Below are positions 27,833-61,402 of a stretch of 64,000 bases of DNA, one piece after another. A program made the translations under genes and the position numbers. The notes beneath the pieces are model-generated. The model was not told the origin of the DNA, ran no database searches, and worked only from the letters and a program-made list of their open reading frames with translations. Origin of the DNA: Kiritimatiellia bacterium (GTDB taxonomy: Bacteria; Verrucomicrobiota; Kiritimatiellia; JAAZAB01); the NCBI GenBank assembly GCA_040767085.1, contig JAXGPF010000006.1:224001-288000 (forward strand). The letters are read 5' to 3'. The stretch's first letter is position 1. Each line of letters begins with the position of its first letter.

Positions 27833-28768
27833 TCACAACCCCTGGCGCAGCACCTGGAGCACCAGCGGGCCAAGGAGCACCAGGAAGACGGCGGGGAAGA
27901 TGAAGGCAATCAGCGGAAAGAGCATTTTCACCGGTGCTTCGTGCGCCAGTTTTTCCGCGCGCAGAAAACGCTTGGCGCGGATTTGATCGGATTGGATGCG
28001 CAGCGTGGCGCCGATGCTCACGCCCATTTCATCGGCCTGCGTCAAGGCCGTCACCAGCGAATGGATGTCCGGCTGGTCCACCCGCCCGGCCATGTGGCGC
28101 AGCGCCTCGCGCCGCGTCTTGCCCAGTTGGATTTCGAACAGCACCCGTCCCAATTCCTCCCCCAGGGCGTCCATTTTCCGCCGCTCGATGATGTTGCGGA
28201 TGGCCGTCATGAAATCCAATCCCGCCTCCACGGAAATGGTCAGGAGATCCATGACAAACGGCAATGCGCGCAGGATTGCGCGATGGCGGAGCGCGACGGC
28301 TTTTTTCAGCCAGAAGCGCGGATAAAACGCCATCCACAGAAACAAGGTCAACGCTAACGCCGCCGGCCGGCCGGACAGGCCTTGACCGGCCGAGGCGAAT
28401 ATACCCAGCATCGCCAGCGCCAGCCCGCCGCCCCAGAGCAGCGGGACGAGCAGGCACAGCGCCAGATACTCCTGCGCGCTCAGGGTATCCTCGTACCCGG
28501 CGGCAGTCAGCCGCGTTTCCAGCCGCGCGCACAGGGGTTGAAACCGGGGACGGTGAAAATAAAACGCCGGGTAGAGGGTCAAGGGCATTAAGGCCCGCAA
28601 CAGCAACGGCAGCCGCCGGGCCTGGCGCGCCAAACCGGCCGCGCCCGGAGCGAGCGGCGCGGCCAGCGTCAACCGCGCCAGGGTCCAACTCAATCCGCAG
28701 GCGAAGACCGCCCACAAGCCTGCCAGCAGGAGTTCCTGCGTGGTAAAATTAAGTCCGGCCGGGTTCAT
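27833..28768 (-). CDS. tadC: Tad pilus assembly protein TadC (T2SS F family)
   Basis: LP..MDLL.ISVEAGLDF, QADEMGVSIG.TLR.QS, AEKLA...PVKMLFPL. Confidence 0.9.
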   Translation of the reverse strand: MNPAGLNFTTQELLLAGLWAVFACGLSWTLARLTLAAPLAPGAAGLARQARRLPLLLRALMPLTLYPAFYFHRPRFQPLCARLETRLTAAGYEDTLSAQEYLALCLLVPLLWGGGLALAMLGIFASAGQGLSGRPAALALTLFLWMAFYPRFWLKKAVALRHRAILRALPFVMDLLTISVEAGLDFMTAIRNIIERRKMDALGEELGRVLFEIQLGKTRREALRHMAGRVDQPDIHSLVTALTQADEMGVSIGATLRIQSDQIRAKRFLRAEKLAHEAPVKMLFPLIAFIFPAVFLVLLGPLVLQVLRQGL

Positions 28769-29664
28769 ATATCAATCGCCACGATTTTGCGGATTAACAA
28801 GGCGCCGATGATTTCCAGAAACAGGATGGCGCCGATCATGGCCAAGCCGACAGGCGAATGGGCGAAGGTGCCCATCATCCGCGGGTCAATGGCAAACATC
28901 ACCGCCGCCAGGATCAAAGGCATCAGCCCTACTACCACCCCCTGCAACCGCCCCTGGGCCGTCAGCGCCAGCACCCGGCCCTGGATGCGGATGCGTTCGC
29001 GGATGGTATGGGCGATTTTTTCAAAAACCTCGGTAAGATTACCGCCGGTCTGCCGGGCGATCTCGATGGCCCGGATCATGATGGTCAAATCCTCGCTGTC
29101 CACCCGACGCTCGAGGTTGCCCAGGGCCTCCTCGAATTTCACGCCAACGCGGGTCTGCTGGAGAAACAGGCTGAATTCCTGCGAAATCGGGTTGCGATTC
29201 TGCTTCACAATCTGCTCGAACGCCTGGAGAATGCTCGACCCGGAACGCAGGGCATTGCTCATGGTCATCAGGGCATCCACCAACTGCTCGTTAAAATCGC
29301 GGCGGCGCTTCTGCTTCAGCATCGCCAGGGCCCGGCCCGGCAGGGTCAACGCCACGCCGCCGGCAAGGCCGCCGACGGCCAACCCGCGCAGCACCCCGGC
29401 CAGCGAGCCGAAATCGCCCACCGCCAGGAAAAACGTCAGGAATACGACCGCCGCCGCCACCCAGGCGATCTCCAGCAGGCGACGGGGCGGGATGAAGTAA
29501 AACATCTCGGCGAATTGCCGCGCCGTGCGCTCGGTATAAACGGCGGCATAACTTTCCGCGCCGGACTGGAGGGCGCGCAGGCAGGCGTAAGCCAGGAGCG
29601 CGAAACTCAAGCCGTACAGCAGCGGAATCAGCCCCAACCATGAAATTTCGTGAAAGTTAAACAT
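28765..29664 (-). CDS. tadB: Tad pilus assembly protein TadB
   Basis: QLVDAL..MSNALRSG.S, I.RQTGGNL.EV, LTAQGR. Confidence 0.9.
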   Translation of the reverse strand: MFNFHEISWLGLIPLLYGLSFALLAYACLRALQSGAESYAAVYTERTARQFAEMFYFIPPRRLLEIAWVAAAVVFLTFFLAVGDFGSLAGVLRGLAVGGLAGGVALTLPGRALAMLKQKRRRDFNEQLVDALMTMSNALRSGSSILQAFEQIVKQNRNPISQEFSLFLQQTRVGVKFEEALGNLERRVDSEDLTIMIRAIEIARQTGGNLTEVFEKIAHTIRERIRIQGRVLALTAQGRLQGVVVGLMPLILAAVMFAIDPRMMGTFAHSPVGLAMIGAILFLEIIGALLIRKIVAIDI

Positions 29665-29727
29665 GGTCAGTGGTCAGTGTTCGGGTTTCAGTGTTCGGTG
29701 GTCGGTGTTCAGTGTTCGGTGGTCGGT
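29665..29727. repeat. heptamer tandem array (9 x GKTCRGT-like)
   Basis: GGTCAGT GGTCAGT GTTCGGG TTTCAGT GTTCGGT GGTCGGT GTTCAGT GTTCGGT GGTCGGT, abutting the tadB start codon. Confidence 0.9.
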
Positions 29728-30194
29728 GAAGAAGGCCAGCCGGGGTGCCGTAGTTCCCATGCCGTTTCATACTCGCCGGCCGGCTCCGCCACGCTCCAAC
29801 GGCGATCTTTCTCGGGAAGATGCCTTTCCAGCGACTTCTCAATACCATTCAGCATTCGAATGCATTGTTTATAACGCTCTCGATATTTCATGAATACATC
29901 ATTCTTGATGTACCCCTTCAACTTGGCCATAAAAAGGTGATGCAGTGTTTCATCTGCCTCCCCGCGGCTGCGGTTGACCCCCTCAACCTTGTTGCGCACG
30001 TGGCGGTCATCATTTTTCTCGGCCAGTTGTGCGGGTGAACTGTTGGACGACCGCCTTATCTGCGCCCCCAGCTCATACCGTTCCTCTGCCGGCCAGGCAT
30101 GACTGAGATCACATATTTCAATATGTAGTTCACAGAGCTTCTGATAAACTTTCAGGTCCGCCACATCCAAATACGTTTTGGCGGTTTCCTCCAT
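29709..30194 (-). CDS. four-helix-bundle protein (23S rRNA IVP / Avd-like family)
   Basis: DLKVYQK...WPAEERYELGAQIRRSSNS.PAQLAE...SRGEA.ET..HL...GYI...RMLNG; GGAGG RBS; visibly more AT-rich than the tad genes. Confidence 0.88.
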   Translation of the reverse strand: MEETAKTYLDVADLKVYQKLCELHIEICDLSHAWPAEERYELGAQIRRSSNSSPAQLAEKNDDRHVRNKVEGVNRSRGEADETLHHLFMAKLKGYIKNDVFMKYRERYKQCIRMLNGIEKSLERHLPEKDRRWSVAEPAGEYETAWELRHPGWPSSPTTEH

Positions 30195-30204
30195 TCCCAT
30201 CCTC

Positions 30205-30255
30205 CACTGAACACTGAACACCCTTTTCCGTCCTGAACACCGAAATCCGAACACG
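30205..30255. repeat. heptamer array inverted relative to 29665-29727
   Basis: CACTGAACACTGAACAC...CTGAACACCGAAATCCGAACAC. Confidence 0.8.
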
Positions 30256-30298
30256 GCCCGCGGACACTGCTCCCGCAAACATACACCCCCGCCCCGCT

Positions 30299-31999
30299 TC
30301 ACCGCCGCCGGGCCGGCGGCTCGAACATGGCCATGTCTATTTCCAGGCCGCGGCTGCGGATGTCTTCGATGAAAGTCGGCACCGAACCGGAAGGCTGGAT
30401 GGCGCCGAGGACGCGGCCCTCGGCATCCAGCCCCGTCTGTTTGAACACGAAAATATCCTGCATGGTGATCCGGTCGCCCTCCAGGCCGGCGACTTCCGTA
30501 ACGGCGGTCACCTTGCGCGAGCCGTCGCTCAGGCGGGCGGTCTGGATGATCAGGTGGATGGCCGAAGCGATCTGCTCGCGGATCGCGCGCGAGGGCAGTT
30601 CGATGCCGGACATGAGGGTCATGGTTTCCAGGCGCGAAATCACATCGCGCGGCGAGTTGGCATGCACGGTGGTCAGGGATCCGTCGTGGCCGGTGTTCAT
30701 CGCCTGCAACATGTCCAGGGATTCGCCGCCGCGGCACTCGCCAATGATGATGCGGTCGGGGCGCATGCGCAAGGCGTTGCGCAGCAAATCGCGGATGGTG
30801 ACCGCGCCCCGGCCCTCGATGTTGGGCGGACGCGACTCCAGCCGCACCACGTGCGCCTGGGAGAGGCGCAACTCCGCCGAATCCTCAATCGTGACGATGC
30901 GATCGGTATTCGGCAGGAACGAACTCAGCACGTTCAAGAAGGTAGTTTTACCAGAGCCGGTGCCGCCGGCCACCACGATATTGCGGCGCAGCATGACGCA
31001 CAGGCGGAGGAATTCCGACATGGCGGGGGTCAACGTGCCCAGGCGGATCAAATCCGTCACGCTGAGGGCATCGCGCGCGAATTTGCGGATGGTCAGGCAT
31101 GGCCCGCTCAATGCCAGGGGCGGGATGATGGCATTGACCCGCGAACCATCCTTCAACCGGGCATCCACGTAGGGCTGGCTTTCGTCTATCCGACGGCCGA
31201 TGGGCGCCACGATGCGCTCGATGATGGCCAGCACGGAAGCGTCGTCCAGAAACACCCGGTCGCTCAACACCAGCCGGCCGCGCTTTTCCACGTAGATCTG
31301 GTCATGGCGGTTGACCATGATTTCCGTGATCTCGGGATCGGCCAGCATATCCTCCAGCGGCCCCAACCCCACCGCTTCGTCGTAAATTTCCTTGATCAGC
31401 ACCGCCGGCTCGATCCAGGCCGGCAGCCGCTGGCGCACTTCCTGGACGATCTGCTCCAGGGTCTGGCGCACCCGCTGGTGCAAATCCGCCTCCTGGATGT
31501 GGGAGGCCGTCAGCCGCTTCATATCCAGCCGCTCGAGCAGCACGGTGTGAATCTGCCGCTTCATCTGCCGCTTCTGTTCCTGCGCCGGATCGGCCCGCAA
31601 AACTTCCGACTGGGAAGGGACCGTCGAATCGCGCGGCGCGCGGACAGTGGCGCCAGGCGGCGGCGCGGCCGCCGGCGCTGGGGCCGGCGGCGGCGCCGCC
31701 GGCCGGCGCACTACCAGGCCGTATTCGCCGCAGCGGATTTCCTGGCCCGGCTTGTACGGGGCGCGCCCCCGCACCGGCGCGCCGTCCAGCATGGTGCCCA
31801 AGCCGCTGTCGAGGTCCTCCACAAAAAATCCGTCTTCGCGCAGCAGCAAGATCGCGTGCCGGCGCGCGACGGCGGCGTCGGGGATGACGATTTTATTGCC
31901 CCGTTCCGAGCCGATGGGGTACACTCCCATGGGCACCAGCTGCTGTTGCAGCGGCGTCCCGGCATGGTTGATTTCCAGTTGGAGCAAATTTTCTGACAT
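30299..31999 (-). CDS. cpaF: Tad/Flp pilus assembly ATPase with N-terminal FHA-like domain
   Basis: GLGPLE.ML.DP.ITEIMVN, DARLKDGSRVN, GGTGSGKTT, IEDSAEL, LRMRPDRII.GECRG, MNTGHDGS; N-terminal FHA-like segment and Pro/Ala linker. Confidence 0.93.
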   Translation of the reverse strand: MSENLLQLEINHAGTPLQQQLVPMGVYPIGSERGNKIVIPDAAVARRHAILLLREDGFFVEDLDSGLGTMLDGAPVRGRAPYKPGQEIRCGEYGLVVRRPAAPPPAPAPAAAPPPGATVRAPRDSTVPSQSEVLRADPAQEQKRQMKRQIHTVLLERLDMKRLTASHIQEADLHQRVRQTLEQIVQEVRQRLPAWIEPAVLIKEIYDEAVGLGPLEDMLADPEITEIMVNRHDQIYVEKRGRLVLSDRVFLDDASVLAIIERIVAPIGRRIDESQPYVDARLKDGSRVNAIIPPLALSGPCLTIRKFARDALSVTDLIRLGTLTPAMSEFLRLCVMLRRNIVVAGGTGSGKTTFLNVLSSFLPNTDRIVTIEDSAELRLSQAHVVRLESRPPNIEGRGAVTIRDLLRNALRMRPDRIIIGECRGGESLDMLQAMNTGHDGSLTTVHANSPRDVISRLETMTLMSGIELPSRAIREQIASAIHLIIQTARLSDGSRKVTAVTEVAGLEGDRITMQDIFVFKQTGLDAEGRVLGAIQPSGSVPTFIEDIRSRGLEIDMAMFEPPARRR

Positions 32000-32007
32000 G
32001 CCAGCCT

Positions 32008-32808
32008 TTACAGTTCCTGCTTGTGGCGGATGTCGCGCTGCCGGATCATGTTCAATTCCTGCAGCTTGTCCTGGATACGCTGATAATCTATCGGCGGCAA
32101 ATCCTTGACGAAGGTCACGTCGGCCGGATTGCGGAGTGCCAGCGAGAGCCGGCCCCTGACGGACTGGGCAAACACCAGCAATTCCACTTCGCGCGGGGTA
32201 ACTTCCAGGGTGATCGTGCTGTATCCCGCCCGCGCCGCCTGGCGCTCGCCCGTTTGCGGCCGGGCCGCCATCTGCTGGCCGGCGGCCAGCACCGTCACAT
32301 CCTGCAGGACGGTCAGTGTGACGATTTCCTGCTCGTTGGGCCGGTTGGTGGAAGGAATGGTGAACGTGCCGATGATGTCCACATGATCGTTCGGCCGCAC
32401 CATGCCGCTGACCGACGAAACGGCGTCAACCGAAATCGAGATGGCGCGCAGCGACAGGGTCACAATATCGGCCAGGCCGGCCTCCGCGCGATACGGCACG
32501 TCCACGTCCGACCACAGGATCGGCTCGTTTTTGTTGATGGTGAAGAGCAGCTTTTTGCCGACGATTTCCTCGGCCGATTCCGGCAGCACCGCCCGGTTGC
32601 CGACATTGCGGCGGAACACCTTCAGCTTGCCGAGGTCGGTCCGCTTGAGGACCGAGCCGGCCGGCAGGTCCTGCGCCGCACCCACCACCCAGATGCTGCT
32701 GGCGCCGCTCATGATCAGTTCCTTCTCGTGGCGCAGATAGGCGCCGGTCAGCAGGAACGCCAGGATCCCGCATACCAGCGCAATGACCAGGACGAGTTTT
32801 TGCTTCAT
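32008..32808 (-). CDS. cpaB: Flp pilus assembly protein CpaB/RcpC
   Basis: N-terminal TM, SAF domain (AAQDLPAG), RAISISVD....SGMVRPNDHVDI, LQDVTVLA, LSLALRN. Confidence 0.9.
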   Translation of the reverse strand: MKQKLVLVIALVCGILAFLLTGAYLRHEKELIMSGASSIWVVGAAQDLPAGSVLKRTDLGKLKVFRRNVGNRAVLPESAEEIVGKKLLFTINKNEPILWSDVDVPYRAEAGLADIVTLSLRAISISVDAVSSVSGMVRPNDHVDIIGTFTIPSTNRPNEQEIVTLTVLQDVTVLAAGQQMAARPQTGERQAARAGYSTITLEVTPREVELLVFAQSVRGRLSLALRNPADVTFVKDLPPIDYQRIQDKLQELNMIRQRDIRHKQEL

Positions 32809-39799: not shown

Positions 39800-41185
39800 T
39801 GTCGTAAACAAATGACTTGGCCGCATAATTAACAAATGATTTGTCCGCTTAAAGCTGTCAGGATGGTGCATTCAAAGGGGGGTTATATGGATGAATATCC
39901 GAAGGCAGCACTGGAGCGGGCAATGAAGGTACAGGAAGTGATCTTGCGTGCGATTGAAGGGCGGTTAATGTGGTGGGAGGCGGCGGAGATACTAGGTGTG
40001 AGCTACCGGACCATGCGGCGCTGGAAAGGGCGCTACGAGCGGTATGGTTACGACGGGCTGCTGGATCGTCGGCGGAAGATACCGGGGCCGCGGCGCGTGC
40101 CCCTTGCGACGGTGAAGCAGGTGCTGAGGTTGTACCGAGAAGAATACATGGATTTCAATGTGAGGCATTTTCACGAGAAGCTGCAGGCGGAGCATGGGAT
40201 CGAGCTCAGTTATCAGTGGGTCAAGAGCGCCTTGCAGACGGCCGGGTTGGTGGCGAAGGCCCGGAAACGAGGGCCGCATCGGCAGCAGCGGGAACGGCGA
40301 CCAATGGCGGGGATGATGTTGATGGTGGATGGCAGCACCCATGCCTGGTTGCCCCTGCTGGCGGGCCAGAAGCAGGATCTGATCCTGGTGATGGACGATG
40401 CCACCAGCGAAGTCTACACGGCCTATCTTGTGCCCCAGGAAGGGACATTAACGGTGATGAAGGGGTTGAAAGAAGTCATTATTAAACATGGGGTTTTCTG
40501 CAGTCTGTACACGGATCGTGGCAGTCATTTCTTTTATACGCCCAAAGAAGGCGGGGCGGTGGACCGGCGTCAATTGACGCAAATTGGACGGGCGTTGCAA
40601 CAGTTGGGGATCGAACATATTCCGAGCTATAGCCCCCAGGGACGTGGGCGAATAGAGCGGATGTTTAAGACCTGGCAAGGGCGCCTGCCGCAGGAATTAA
40701 GGCAGGCGGGAATCCGGACGATGGCCGAGGCCAACGTCTATATTCAACAACAGTTTCTGCCTTCCTTCAATCGCAACATGAAGGTGAAGGCGCGGGAAAC
40801 AGGAACGTGTTTCGTGCCTTGCGGTGAGCAGGATTTGGACAGCATTTTCTGTGTGCAGCATGCGCGAGAGGTTCAAAATGACAATACCGTGGCTGTCGGG
40901 AGTCGCCGCTTGCAGATTGGACCATCAAAATGGCGTTTCAGCTTCGCCAAGTGCCGGGTTAAAGTCTGCGAGCACCTCGATGGCACGGTGTCCATCCGTT
41001 ATGGCCCGCATGTGGTTGGCCGCTACCAAGGACCGTTGAACATTTCGGCGTCGCTGGAGGACGTCGCATAAACTTTTTCCTCCCCCGCGGGGGAGGAAAA
41101 TCCTCACCCCAGGAGCAACAACACACAATAACAAATCGGACAGATCACTTGTTACAAAAAGCGGACACTTGACTTGTTACGAACA
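39800..41185 (+). mobile_element. insertion sequence, IS1202/ISNCY-like (copy A)
   Basis: TGT...ACA ends with repeated sub-terminal AACAARTSA...TGTCCGC-type motifs at both ends; single DDE transposase. Confidence 0.85.
39887..41071 (+). CDS. DDE transposase (IS1202/ISNCY, IS481-related fold)
   Basis: HTH EAAEILGVS.RTMRRW, DGSTHAW, MDDATS, YTDRGSHF, SPQGRGRIERMF.TWQGRL. Confidence 0.93.
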   Translation: MDEYPKAALERAMKVQEVILRAIEGRLMWWEAAEILGVSYRTMRRWKGRYERYGYDGLLDRRRKIPGPRRVPLATVKQVLRLYREEYMDFNVRHFHEKLQAEHGIELSYQWVKSALQTAGLVAKARKRGPHRQQRERRPMAGMMLMVDGSTHAWLPLLAGQKQDLILVMDDATSEVYTAYLVPQEGTLTVMKGLKEVIIKHGVFCSLYTDRGSHFFYTPKEGGAVDRRQLTQIGRALQQLGIEHIPSYSPQGRGRIERMFKTWQGRLPQELRQAGIRTMAEANVYIQQQFLPSFNRNMKVKARETGTCFVPCGEQDLDSIFCVQHAREVQNDNTVAVGSRRLQIGPSKWRFSFAKCRVKVCEHLDGTVSIRYGPHVVGRYQGPLNISASLEDVA

Positions 41186-42743: not shown

Positions 42744-43457
42744 TTGAAAAGCAAACCAAAGCGCCTGCTGATCGTCACCGACAATCGTTACGTCTCCGCC
42801 GTGCTTTGCCACGGCCTGGGATTGCCGCCCTGGCGGGACTTGCCCGCGGCGCAGGCTGATCCCGGCTTGCGCCAGGCCATGACCGCCTCCGTCAACCGCG
42901 CCATCCAACAAGCGCGCCGCGCCGGCTTCAACGCCTTTGATGTGCATGAGGCTTTCCCGGTGGACTTCATGCGCATGGACCCCGCCGCCGAGATTATCCG
43001 CAACGCGGATTATTTTCTACTCGAACGCCATTATCACTCCGTCCGGTTCCTGCGATGCGGTTTCAAACGGCTGCAACGCGGGACGCACCTGGCCATGATC
43101 AAGTCCCTGCGCCTGGGCCGGGCGGCGCTCACGGAGACCGCCCTGCTGGCGCTTTACTTCCGAAGCCACGGGATCAGACCGCTGAACATGGCCAGGACGG
43201 CATCGCCGGCGCGGTTGCCCGCGGAATTCACCATCAGTTTTGATCCCCGCGTCACATTGAAAAACGCGGCGGTCTACCCGGGCGTCATCCGGTCCGCCCC
43301 GCATGTCTTTACCGCGCGGATCGCGCGGACCGATCAGCTCCTGGAATTCTATCGTTACGCCGGCTTGCAGATCATTAATGCCAATATTCAGCCTGCCGTG
43401 GAAGGCATGCAAGGGGCAAAGGGGCAAAGGATCACAGGCGCAAAGTCTGGAGCTTAA
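42744..43457 (+). CDS. hypothetical protein, possibly degenerate M55 peptidase homolog
   Basis: LLIVTD...MTASVNRAI...DVHE...LTETALLA echoes the downstream M55 layout but lacks the DxE motif; TTG start. Confidence 0.5.
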   Translation: MKSKPKRLLIVTDNRYVSAVLCHGLGLPPWRDLPAAQADPGLRQAMTASVNRAIQQARRAGFNAFDVHEAFPVDFMRMDPAAEIIRNADYFLLERHYHSVRFLRCGFKRLQRGTHLAMIKSLRLGRAALTETALLALYFRSHGIRPLNMARTASPARLPAEFTISFDPRVTLKNAAVYPGVIRSAPHVFTARIARTDQLLEFYRYAGLQIINANIQPAVEGMQGAKGQRITGAKSGA

Positions 43458-61348: not shown

Positions 61349-61374
61349 GTTACACCAGGATTTCTTTTAAAAGT

Positions 61375-61402
61375 TTTCCGTGTTCGGGGTTCCGTGTTCG
61401 GG
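61375..61402. repeat. orphan heptamer array
   Basis: TTTCCGT GTTCGGG GTTCCGT GTTCGGG; same unit type as 29665-29727. Confidence 0.6.

Follow-up and report, generated by a model that had tools for sequence, protein, structure and literature searches.

What is the gene of a small four-helix-bundle protein doing in the middle of a tad operon, between cpaF and tadB, and why is it framed by two arrays of heptamers that are complementary to each other? The question is raised by a stretch of 64,000 nt from the genome of a Kiritimatiellia bacterium (the window, to which all coordinates refer unless a contig is named). The source genome is called here G000, its congeners G001 to G004, and the window lies on contig C25. 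In answer, the gene and its arrays are probably an accessory cassette of the intervening sequence (IVS) type, made of one gene of the PF05635 family plus two mutually inverted heptamer arrays, which is inherited and exchanged as a unit and sits here in the cpaF-tadB spacer. Two puzzles meet at this place. The function of PF05635 has been unsettled since the family was discovered in rRNA intervening sequences, and tandem heptamers are a separate old puzzle. The locus, together with the controls, indicates that the gene family and the heptamer arrays form one unit, which lives in ordinary operons.

Architecture of the locus

The features of the operon are the following (arm sequences are written on the mRNA strand, which is the minus strand).

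32008-32808, minus strand: cpaB/RcpC-like gene
30299..31999, minus strand: upstream neighbour, a secretion ATPase of the cpaF/tadA type that carries an FHA domain at its N terminus (Pfam T2SSE, E 4e-64; FHA, E 9e-12)
30255..30298, minus strand: non-repeat spacer from the cpaF stop codon to the first heptamer (sequence, folds)
30201..30254, minus strand: 5′ arm of heptamers (sequence)
29709..30194, minus strand: four-helix-bundle gene, 161 aa, PF05635/TIGR02436 (profiles, model)
29665..29728, minus strand: 3′ arm, complementary to the 5′ arm and made of nine CACYGAM heptamers in one phase with a single extra base (sequence)
28765..29664, minus strand: tadB (T2SSF platform protein), the downstream neighbour, without a Shine-Dalgarno sequence (Pfam)
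27833..28768, minus strand: tadC (second T2SSF protein), whose start overlaps the tadB stop (Pfam)

The cassette holds a single open reading frame (ORF) and neither a recombinase nor a transposase. Its 5′ arm is built in two halves, an outer one with the units GTGTTCG, GATTTCG and GTGTTCA at 30254-30234, followed by a 12-nt break, and an inner one with GTGTTCA, GTGTTCA and GTGGAGG at 30221-30201, the last unit of which doubles as the Shine-Dalgarno sequence (GGAGGA) of the small gene. The 3′ arm (29728-29665) reads CACCGAC, CACCGAA, CACTGAA, CACCGAC, CACCGAA, CACTGAA, ACCCGAA, CACTGAC, CACTGAC and a final C. These nine heptamers keep perfect phase, begin in the last codons of the small gene and stop one base short of the tadB ATG; the TGA stop codon of the small gene (29709-29711) falls in the third unit, 44 nt ahead of that ATG. 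The window contains 14 copies of the double unit GTGTTCRGTGTTCR with up to two mismatches where 0.82 would be expected; none of 100 shuffles reaches this number of copies, and 10 of the 14 fall within the two arms. Moreover, the small gene is AT-richer than its neighbours, with a GC content of 52.5% and a GC content at third codon positions (GC3) of 58%, compared with GC3 values of 80-85% in cpaB, cpaF, tadB and tadC. The first-pass annotation of this DNA had described an AT-richer gene of the 23S-IVP/Avd type parting cpaF from tadB, with heptamers ahead of its ribosome-binding site and nine complementary heptamers reaching up to the tadB ATG. Coordinates, Pfam match and base composition agree with that description, which is confirmed in every detail as an observation on the sequence, with one qualification regarding the ribosome-binding site of tadB (see below).

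The encoded protein is matched by the PF05635 (23S_rRNA_IVP) profile with 76.7 bits (E 2e-21, cut-off 33.8) and by the TIGR02436 ('four helix bundle protein') profile with 74.5 bits against a cut-off of 24. An AlphaFold model built from 26 sequences reaches a predicted local distance difference test (pLDDT) value of 84 and places helices at residues 15-32, 36-61, 66-92 and 98-123 (core 15-123), whereas residues 124-161 form a low-confidence tail that ends in codons belonging to the 3′ arm. As modelled, the fold is a four-helix bundle like those of Xcc0516 (2GSC), the best structural match with a template modelling (TM) score of 0.90-0.92 and a root-mean-square deviation of 1.2, and of BT_0352 (2RLD), the second one (TM 0.79-0.88); both entries list five chains. 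The third match is Avd (4DWL; TM 0.87, 7% identity), a protein of diversity-generating retroelements (DGRs). Regarding the family motif GxxRxxxSxxxNxxE (PMC3936711), residues R48, S52 and E59 are invariant in the alignment, and a glutamine, Q56, takes the N position of the motif throughout the subfamily. PADLOC gave no match for either of the two PF05635-family proteins of the genome.

Gene and arrays across the family

If gene and arrays form a unit, they should be found together elsewhere, as the first-pass annotation had also expected for inverted 7/8-mer arrays and the homologues of this gene. Flanks were scored at 80 close relatives (62-89% identity), at 29 diverse PF05635 genes of the phylum and at the genome's own two copies, the arm score being the best local alignment of the 5′ flank against the reverse complement of the 3′ flank, and the same flank windows shifted by 700-1400 nt in the same loci served as controls. 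An inverted-arm score of at least 30 was reached at 85 of the 109 evaluable loci in comparison with 3 of the 551 shifted controls, in a set where loci are not independent (several come from single metagenome-assembled genomes, MAGs) and where the 80 close relatives were chosen by protein similarity. The expected association is thus borne out. The best flank period is 7 almost throughout and occasionally 8. Subsequent counts use the 78 non-duplicate cassettes.

The hosts of the relatives at 62-89% identity are MAGs labelled Verrucomicrobiota, Lentisphaerae, Desulfobacterales, Sumerlaeota, Armatimonadetes and Lewinellaceae. The nearest of these relatives (86-88% identity) occur in other gene contexts, and members of the subfamily adjoin unrelated genes elsewhere. 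With PF05635/TIGR02436 matches in 142 of the 201 genomes sampled in the phylum and as many as 22 copies in a single genome, the family at large is a very big one. Among cultured organisms, an annotated case is a four-helix-bundle gene on a plasmid of Tolypothrix sp. PCC 7910, with the flanks GGGGAGC.../...CTCCCCTG. A search of plasmids returned four distant cyanobacterial matches and no close relative, and a search of phages returned no match. Neither search brought up a vehicle that could transfer the cassette.

The same layout is repeated within the genome by its second PF05635 gene (C23:84278-84583, 116 aa, GC 39%), which is flanked by 8-mers of the TAACACC type. In that region (C23:83940-84700, locus L001:1160-1920), five tandem units of ~64 nt with words of the GGTGTTAAGG type stand upstream of the gene, and about twelve TAACACC(C/T) 8-mers downstream of it reach the ATG of the next gene. 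A further observation comes from two loci of one genus, L114 (G039) and L125 (G054). In both, a PF05635 cassette stands ahead of the same gene, but the arm units differ, being GGCACTA heptamers in one case and GGCACAAAGG-type 8-mers in the other, which makes this a second intergenic site occupied by different members of the class. A rule according to which 5′ arms would be free of stop codons and 3′ arms closed in all frames was also considered and not upheld in 23 distant loci; in the close subfamily, stops are missing from 45 of 55 5′ arms and close every frame in 42 of 55 3′ arms.

Repeat unit and protein lineage

The sequence of the repeat unit follows the lineage of the protein. In the close subfamily the dominant unit is GTGTTC, GGTTTC, GGTGTC or GAGTTC at 78 of 81 loci, with hosts labelled as several phyla, whereas 30 distant loci carry 27 different units, none of them of these four types. 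A correlation between the identity of the proteins and the similarity of their units also holds at 25 distant loci, with a Spearman coefficient of 0.225, a value reached by 4 of 2000 permutations. Since unconstrained flanks should be randomised at a protein identity of 62-70%, the unit sequence appears to be under constraint, and recognition by the co-travelling protein would be the simplest source of such a constraint. As the repeat sequence follows the protein lineage, the function of the family becomes open to concrete questions about binding and RNase III.

According to a wider conjecture, which we consider rather unlikely, the four-helix-bundle proteins would read their own arrays sequence-specifically, and the two together would form a self-contained system, mobile or self-maintaining, that needs no transposase. 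Hairpins of heptamers and octamers without a gene, which are very numerous in bacterial genomes (among them those of Xanthomonas and cyanobacteria, and the one in the cpaF-tadB spacer of G002), would then be its non-autonomous offspring, and the rRNA intervening sequence one landing site among many.

Presence, absence and age at the cpaF-tadB junction

Loci of tadB were sought in 40 relatives; 30 loci were returned, 29 of them with both flanks, the own genome included. Only two of the 29 junctions, those of G000 and G001, hold the small gene, which is absent from 27 of the 28 other than its own. Out of the genus, none of the 24 junctions holds it, and cpaF and tadB abut or overlap in all 24; of the five congeners, G000 and G001 carry it and G002, G003 and G004 lack it. 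Cassette-free alleles, for which the first-pass annotation had proposed to look, do therefore exist, and its idea of a discrete transposase-free cassette (one ORF plus arrays, missing from most junctions) stood up. Among the outcomes that it had named as contrary to its proposal, none of those open to testing was found, as the gene is not fixed at this position and its homologues are array-associated. These comparisons show that the cassette is accessory, that it is not a component of the Tad machinery and that the tad operon can dispense with it.

The spacers of the five congeners differ in content. In G000 the spacer with the cassette measures 634 nt, and in G001 it reaches about 830 nt, with the same gene at 89% identity, a 3′ array of about 270 nt (about 38 units versus nine in G000) and a 5′ array of about 95 nt. 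The spacer of G002 (about 176 nt) holds a gene-less hairpin of other heptamers (CAGTATT.../...ATTCTGA) together with small terminal hairpins, that of G003 (50 nt) keeps a 42-nt end remnant of the G002-type element with one heptamer and one terminal hairpin, and that of G004 consists of 31 unrelated bases. No target-site duplication and no sharp ends were found at the tad locus, where the alleles are unlike each other across the full spacer and in codons 2-3 of tadB.

Regarding age, the small genes of G000 and G001 differ by a synonymous divergence (dS) of 0.44 with a ratio of non-synonymous to synonymous divergence (dN/dS) of 0.13, compared with 0.58 and 0.09 for tadB and 0.44 and 0.03 for the end of cpaF. 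Because dS is similar in the three, the cassette has kept pace with its neighbours in divergence and, by this measure, occupied the site already before G000 and G001 separated; its protein is under purifying selection. Beside this equal synonymous divergence, the small gene retains its GC3 of 58% next to neighbours at 80-85%, with no drift towards the composition of the host. The equal dS in gene and flanks favours a single old gain. The tadB-tadC tree joins G001 to G002 and G003 (support 83/99) without placing G000, and cpaF yields a polytomy. The simplest history, though not a firm one against two separate gains, would be that the cassette was gained once long ago and later replaced in the line of G002 and G003.

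Predicted pairing of the arms in the transcript

The first-pass annotation had also proposed a looping out of the gene by pairing between the arms, possibly in more than one register, and the predictions are in line with it. More than ten alternative inverted pairings exist between the arms, for instance 19 nt at 95% and 31 nt at 81%, which makes pairing in several registers physically plausible. A computed RNA fold of 29640-30300 pairs the arms around the ORF with a minimum free energy of -253.8 kcal/mol (z = -7.1, 20 shuffles), and in it the final 3′-arm units pair with the inner part of the non-repeat spacer (about 30255-30270). When the two arms are folded alone, the predicted duplex of -76.6 kcal/mol covers the Shine-Dalgarno sequence of the small gene and leaves only a few bases free ahead of the tadB AUG. 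A promoter and terminator scan of the cassette found no promoter-like site and no terminator.

As for transcripts, one public metatranscriptome contained 0.11 of the sampled words, and a comparison of four runs with the region gave only three exact, read-sized contigs, 28700-28941, 29287-29423 and 30100-30244, with no joints or informative ends. Contigs of the runs X2-X4 (labelled anaerobic digester) match nothing but the heptamer array at 29687-29721, with 90-95% identity, and are embedded in sequence of a different kind, which assigns them to other organisms; judged by these matches, the heptamer family is also present in RNA libraries of other organisms.

Proposed mechanism and points against it

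According to the IVS-type reading, the cassette would lack its own promoter and be transcribed along with the operon. Such a dependence on host transcription is supported by the orientation of related cassettes, as 49 of the 69 loci with both neighbours callable are co-oriented with both and two are opposed to both. In the transcript, its arms would form an imperfect helix of ~60 bp around the ORF, which would bury the Shine-Dalgarno sequence of the small gene and stop a few bases short of the tadB AUG. By analogy with the intervening sequences of 23S rRNA in which genes of this family are found, such a helix is a likely substrate of RNase III, whose gene is present in the genome, and cleavage would separate three parts of the operon mRNA, namely cpaF, the cassette and tadBC. 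To this cleavage step, which is borrowed from the rRNA case, we give roughly an even chance. The protein may recognise its own arrays, as suggested by the subfamily-specific heptamer unit. Its relatives crystallise with five chains, and among characterised proteins the nearest in fold is Avd, which binds nucleic acid and the reverse transcriptase. The unit itself would be propagated at the DNA level, by whatever route, and once inside an operon it would be co-transcribed with it.

Several observations weigh against this picture. Arrays of the GTGTTCR type occur without a nearby gene at about ten other places in the genome, one of which is a gene-less hairpin, and relatives with no detected gene of the subfamily have arrays too (32 pattern matches in G002, 20 in G003 and 38 in G014), so a gene in cis is not a strict requirement for the arrays. 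The link between unit and protein could partly reflect shared descent. Selection on a helix in the sense RNA predicts an excess of G:U over A:C among the transition mismatches of the arms, and the counts on the sense strand of the 78 cassettes, 62 G:U versus 83 A:C, speak against it. Moreover, the arms of G001 are unequal (about 270 versus 95 nt), which means that much of the array cannot be paired. Finally, the orientations behind the co-orientation count were called by a longest-ORF heuristic.

Alternative explanations

Part of this evidence would fit a mobile element that acts at the DNA level, with the arrays as hairpin ends as in MITEs (miniature inverted-repeat transposable elements) or repetitive extragenic palindromic (REP) sequences, the protein as a helper, the gene-less arrays as non-autonomous copies and RNA pairing as a by-product. 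This explanation overlaps the preferred one and differs from it only in where the arms act; we hold it to be a possible, if not a likely, account. It is in keeping with the symmetric arm mismatches, with the dozens of gene-less AGAATTC-type hairpins of the genus, which are polymorphic for insertion, and with the copy of this element in the G002 cpaF-tadB spacer and its remnant in G003. In the same line, a triple GTGTTCR unit is present in eight of nine relatives with the subfamily gene versus 12 of 32 without it, the reversed-pattern control giving 0-1 matches. What it leaves without explanation is the prevailing co-orientation with both neighbours, which is not expected unless expression needs read-through. 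Furthermore, a DNA element of this kind has to be reconciled with the spacer ends at the tad locus, which are neither sharp nor duplicated, with a fold of helical bundles only that is of no known catalytic type, with a cassette free of recombinase and transposase for which no trans-acting enzyme was found, and with the lack of close relatives among plasmids (the four distant matches) and phages.

A regulatory device recruited by the operon is an improbable alternative. Here the helix would occlude the start of tadB, and translation of the small gene or cleavage would tune the cpaF:tadB ratio. The geometry is suggestive, given a 3′ arm that ends one base from the tadB ATG, a predicted helix within a few bases of it and a small-gene stop codon inside the 3′ arm, and the cassette has been kept since the split of G000 and G001. 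The operon does without it in three of five congeners and in all 24 out-of-genus relatives, however, the subfamily adjoins unrelated genes elsewhere, and array length differs four-fold between the two carriers. The initiation of tadB was also part of the earlier claim, which had noted that the arrays leave this gene with no conventional ribosome-binding site. The absence is real but not special, because cpaB, cpaF, tadB and tadC all lack a Shine-Dalgarno sequence, the tadB alleles of all five congeners, the cassette-free ones included, lack it as well, and its core was found at only 663 of the 2529 ORFs of at least 300 aa in the genome (162 in the control window). Being the norm of the genome, the missing site is no sign that the cassette has taken over tadB initiation, and the purifying selection on tadB downstream of it (dN/dS 0.09) indicates that the cassette is tolerated. 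The suggestion of a mobile or regulatory cassette acting on operon mRNA is partly supported, in that the cassette stands; for regulation of tadB no sign was seen, and the G:U count showed no excess. A tolerated selfish passenger is more likely than an evolved regulator of tadB.

A slipped-strand switch, in which the number of heptamers would toggle tadB or the small gene, would agree with a period that is not a multiple of three and with the change from nine units in G000 to about 38 in G001, and is very improbable given that the arrays stop before the tadB ATG and cannot shift its frame, that no promoter-like site offers a spacing to alter and that the stop codons of the 3′ arm let a change of units affect only the last few residues. 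Hardly credible is an ordinary lineage-specific Tad accessory protein with incidental flanking repeats, for which its co-oriented place in the operon and purifying selection would speak, against its absence from 27 of 28 other junctions, its foreign GC3, its nearest relatives in other gene contexts and an arm enrichment over controls across the family given as 28-fold.

Comparison with known systems

A close parallel to the IVS-type cassette is found in rRNA. In Coxiella burnetii, the intervening sequence in helix 45 of the 23S rRNA has an S23p ORF, tandem heptamers upstream and a 28-bp terminal stem, and is cleaved by RNase III, as described in PMC4990558, where ORF-bearing intervening sequences of Leptospira are cited as well. 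As far as these descriptions go, both systems share the protein family in the loop, the terminal inverted repeats that form a long stem around the ORF, the tandem heptamers just upstream of it, a sporadic distribution and the lack of a transposase. They differ in the host transcript, which here belongs to a protein-coding operon, and in the arms, which here are heptamer arrays on both sides. RNase III cleavage has been shown for the Coxiella element according to the same article, while the tad cassette is known from its sequence. The 23S gene of our genome has no large insert, with 2953 nt against a model of 2925 positions. Genes of the family are also reported in rRNA insertions of bacteria of the candidate phyla radiation, as outlined in 10.1101/2024.02.27.582315.

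Avd, the four-helix-bundle accessory protein of DGRs, binds nucleic acid and the reverse transcriptase, in the account given with PDB 4DWL and 8UB7 and in PMC10053308. It has the same fold as the small protein in spite of the low identity. Unlike in DGRs, there is no reverse transcriptase and no template or variable repeat near the tad cassette, and the only RVT_1 match of the genome lies on contig C22 instead of C25.

Outside rRNA, family genes have been noted within cas operons, for instance between cmr3 and cmr2, and read as possibly having a Cas-associated function (PMC3936711). This is again a family gene wedged into an unrelated operon, and the passage in question makes no reference to flanking repeats. 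Where genes of this family turn up within cas, tad or other operons, they should not be taken for components of the respective systems.

Heptamers, for their part, are known as paired inverted repeats, GGGAATC in Xanthomonas and GGGGA(T/C)T in Nostoc, which are treated in PMC4692102 as G-quadruplex-forming, and as the cyanobacterial heptanucleotide repeats cited there. As presented in that article, these share with our arrays their intergenic position in tandem, the convergent pairs with stem-loop potential and the variation in length between close relatives. Its main text does not link them to the PF05635 family, and mentions neither xcc0516 nor the terms 'four-helix' and 'hypothetical protein' (the supplements lie outside this scope). 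In the literature searched, we found no description of this gene family with inverted heptamer arms outside rRNA.

MITEs and REP/REPIN sequences are short hairpin-forming intergenic elements with many copies and presence/absence polymorphism. The gene-less heptamer hairpins of the genus resemble them in this regard. In contrast to MITEs and REP sequences, their ends are periodic arrays instead of unique inverted repeats and there is no associated transposase or gene of the REP-associated tyrosine transposase (RAYT) type; unlike with MITEs, the tad locus shows no target duplication.

Gene-less arrays and other repeats

The gene-less AGAATTC-type element measures ~170 nt and consists of two small terminal hairpins (TTTCAAAA-n4/5-TTTTGAAA), inverted AGAATTC/ATTCTGA arms and a loop of ~50 nt. 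The following copies are recorded.

G000, C25:47916-48087: gene-less AGAATTC-type element
G000, C22:298480-298640: gene-less AGAATTC-type element
G000, C22:451900-451950: gene-less AGAATTC-type element
G000, C25:195200-195330: gene-less AGAATTC-type element
G002, C27:7899-8086: gene-less AGAATTC-type element

Dozens of copies with 75-95% identity are found in G001-G003, one of which fills the G002 cpaF-tadB spacer, and in one copy a GTGTTCG array is nested in the loop. For the copy at C25:47916-48087, the orthologous spacer is empty in G002 and G003 and partial in G001. The element is a true insertion polymorphism with clean empty sites, and it resembles a MITE built from heptamer arrays.

In the window, a solo GTGTTCG-like array (TTCCGTGTTCGGGGTTCCGTGTTCGGGG) stands at 61373-61400, preceded by TTTTAAAAG, with no family gene or inverted partner nearby. 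Further families of 8-mers (AGGGGCAA/CCTTTGCC and TAAAACCT, with AAGGGGCA units at 43411-43445) have no cognate family gene in G000, and similar 8-mer units frame PF05635 genes in relatives (L120, L125). Finally, an ORF at 39836-41071 on the plus strand has HTH_28/HTH_32 domains and an IS481-type leucine zipper, and is adjoined by a 46-nt tandem at about 39807-39852, the 24-nt unit of which occurs at 31 places of the genome (TRF). The ORF and its tandem are probably a high-copy insertion sequence.

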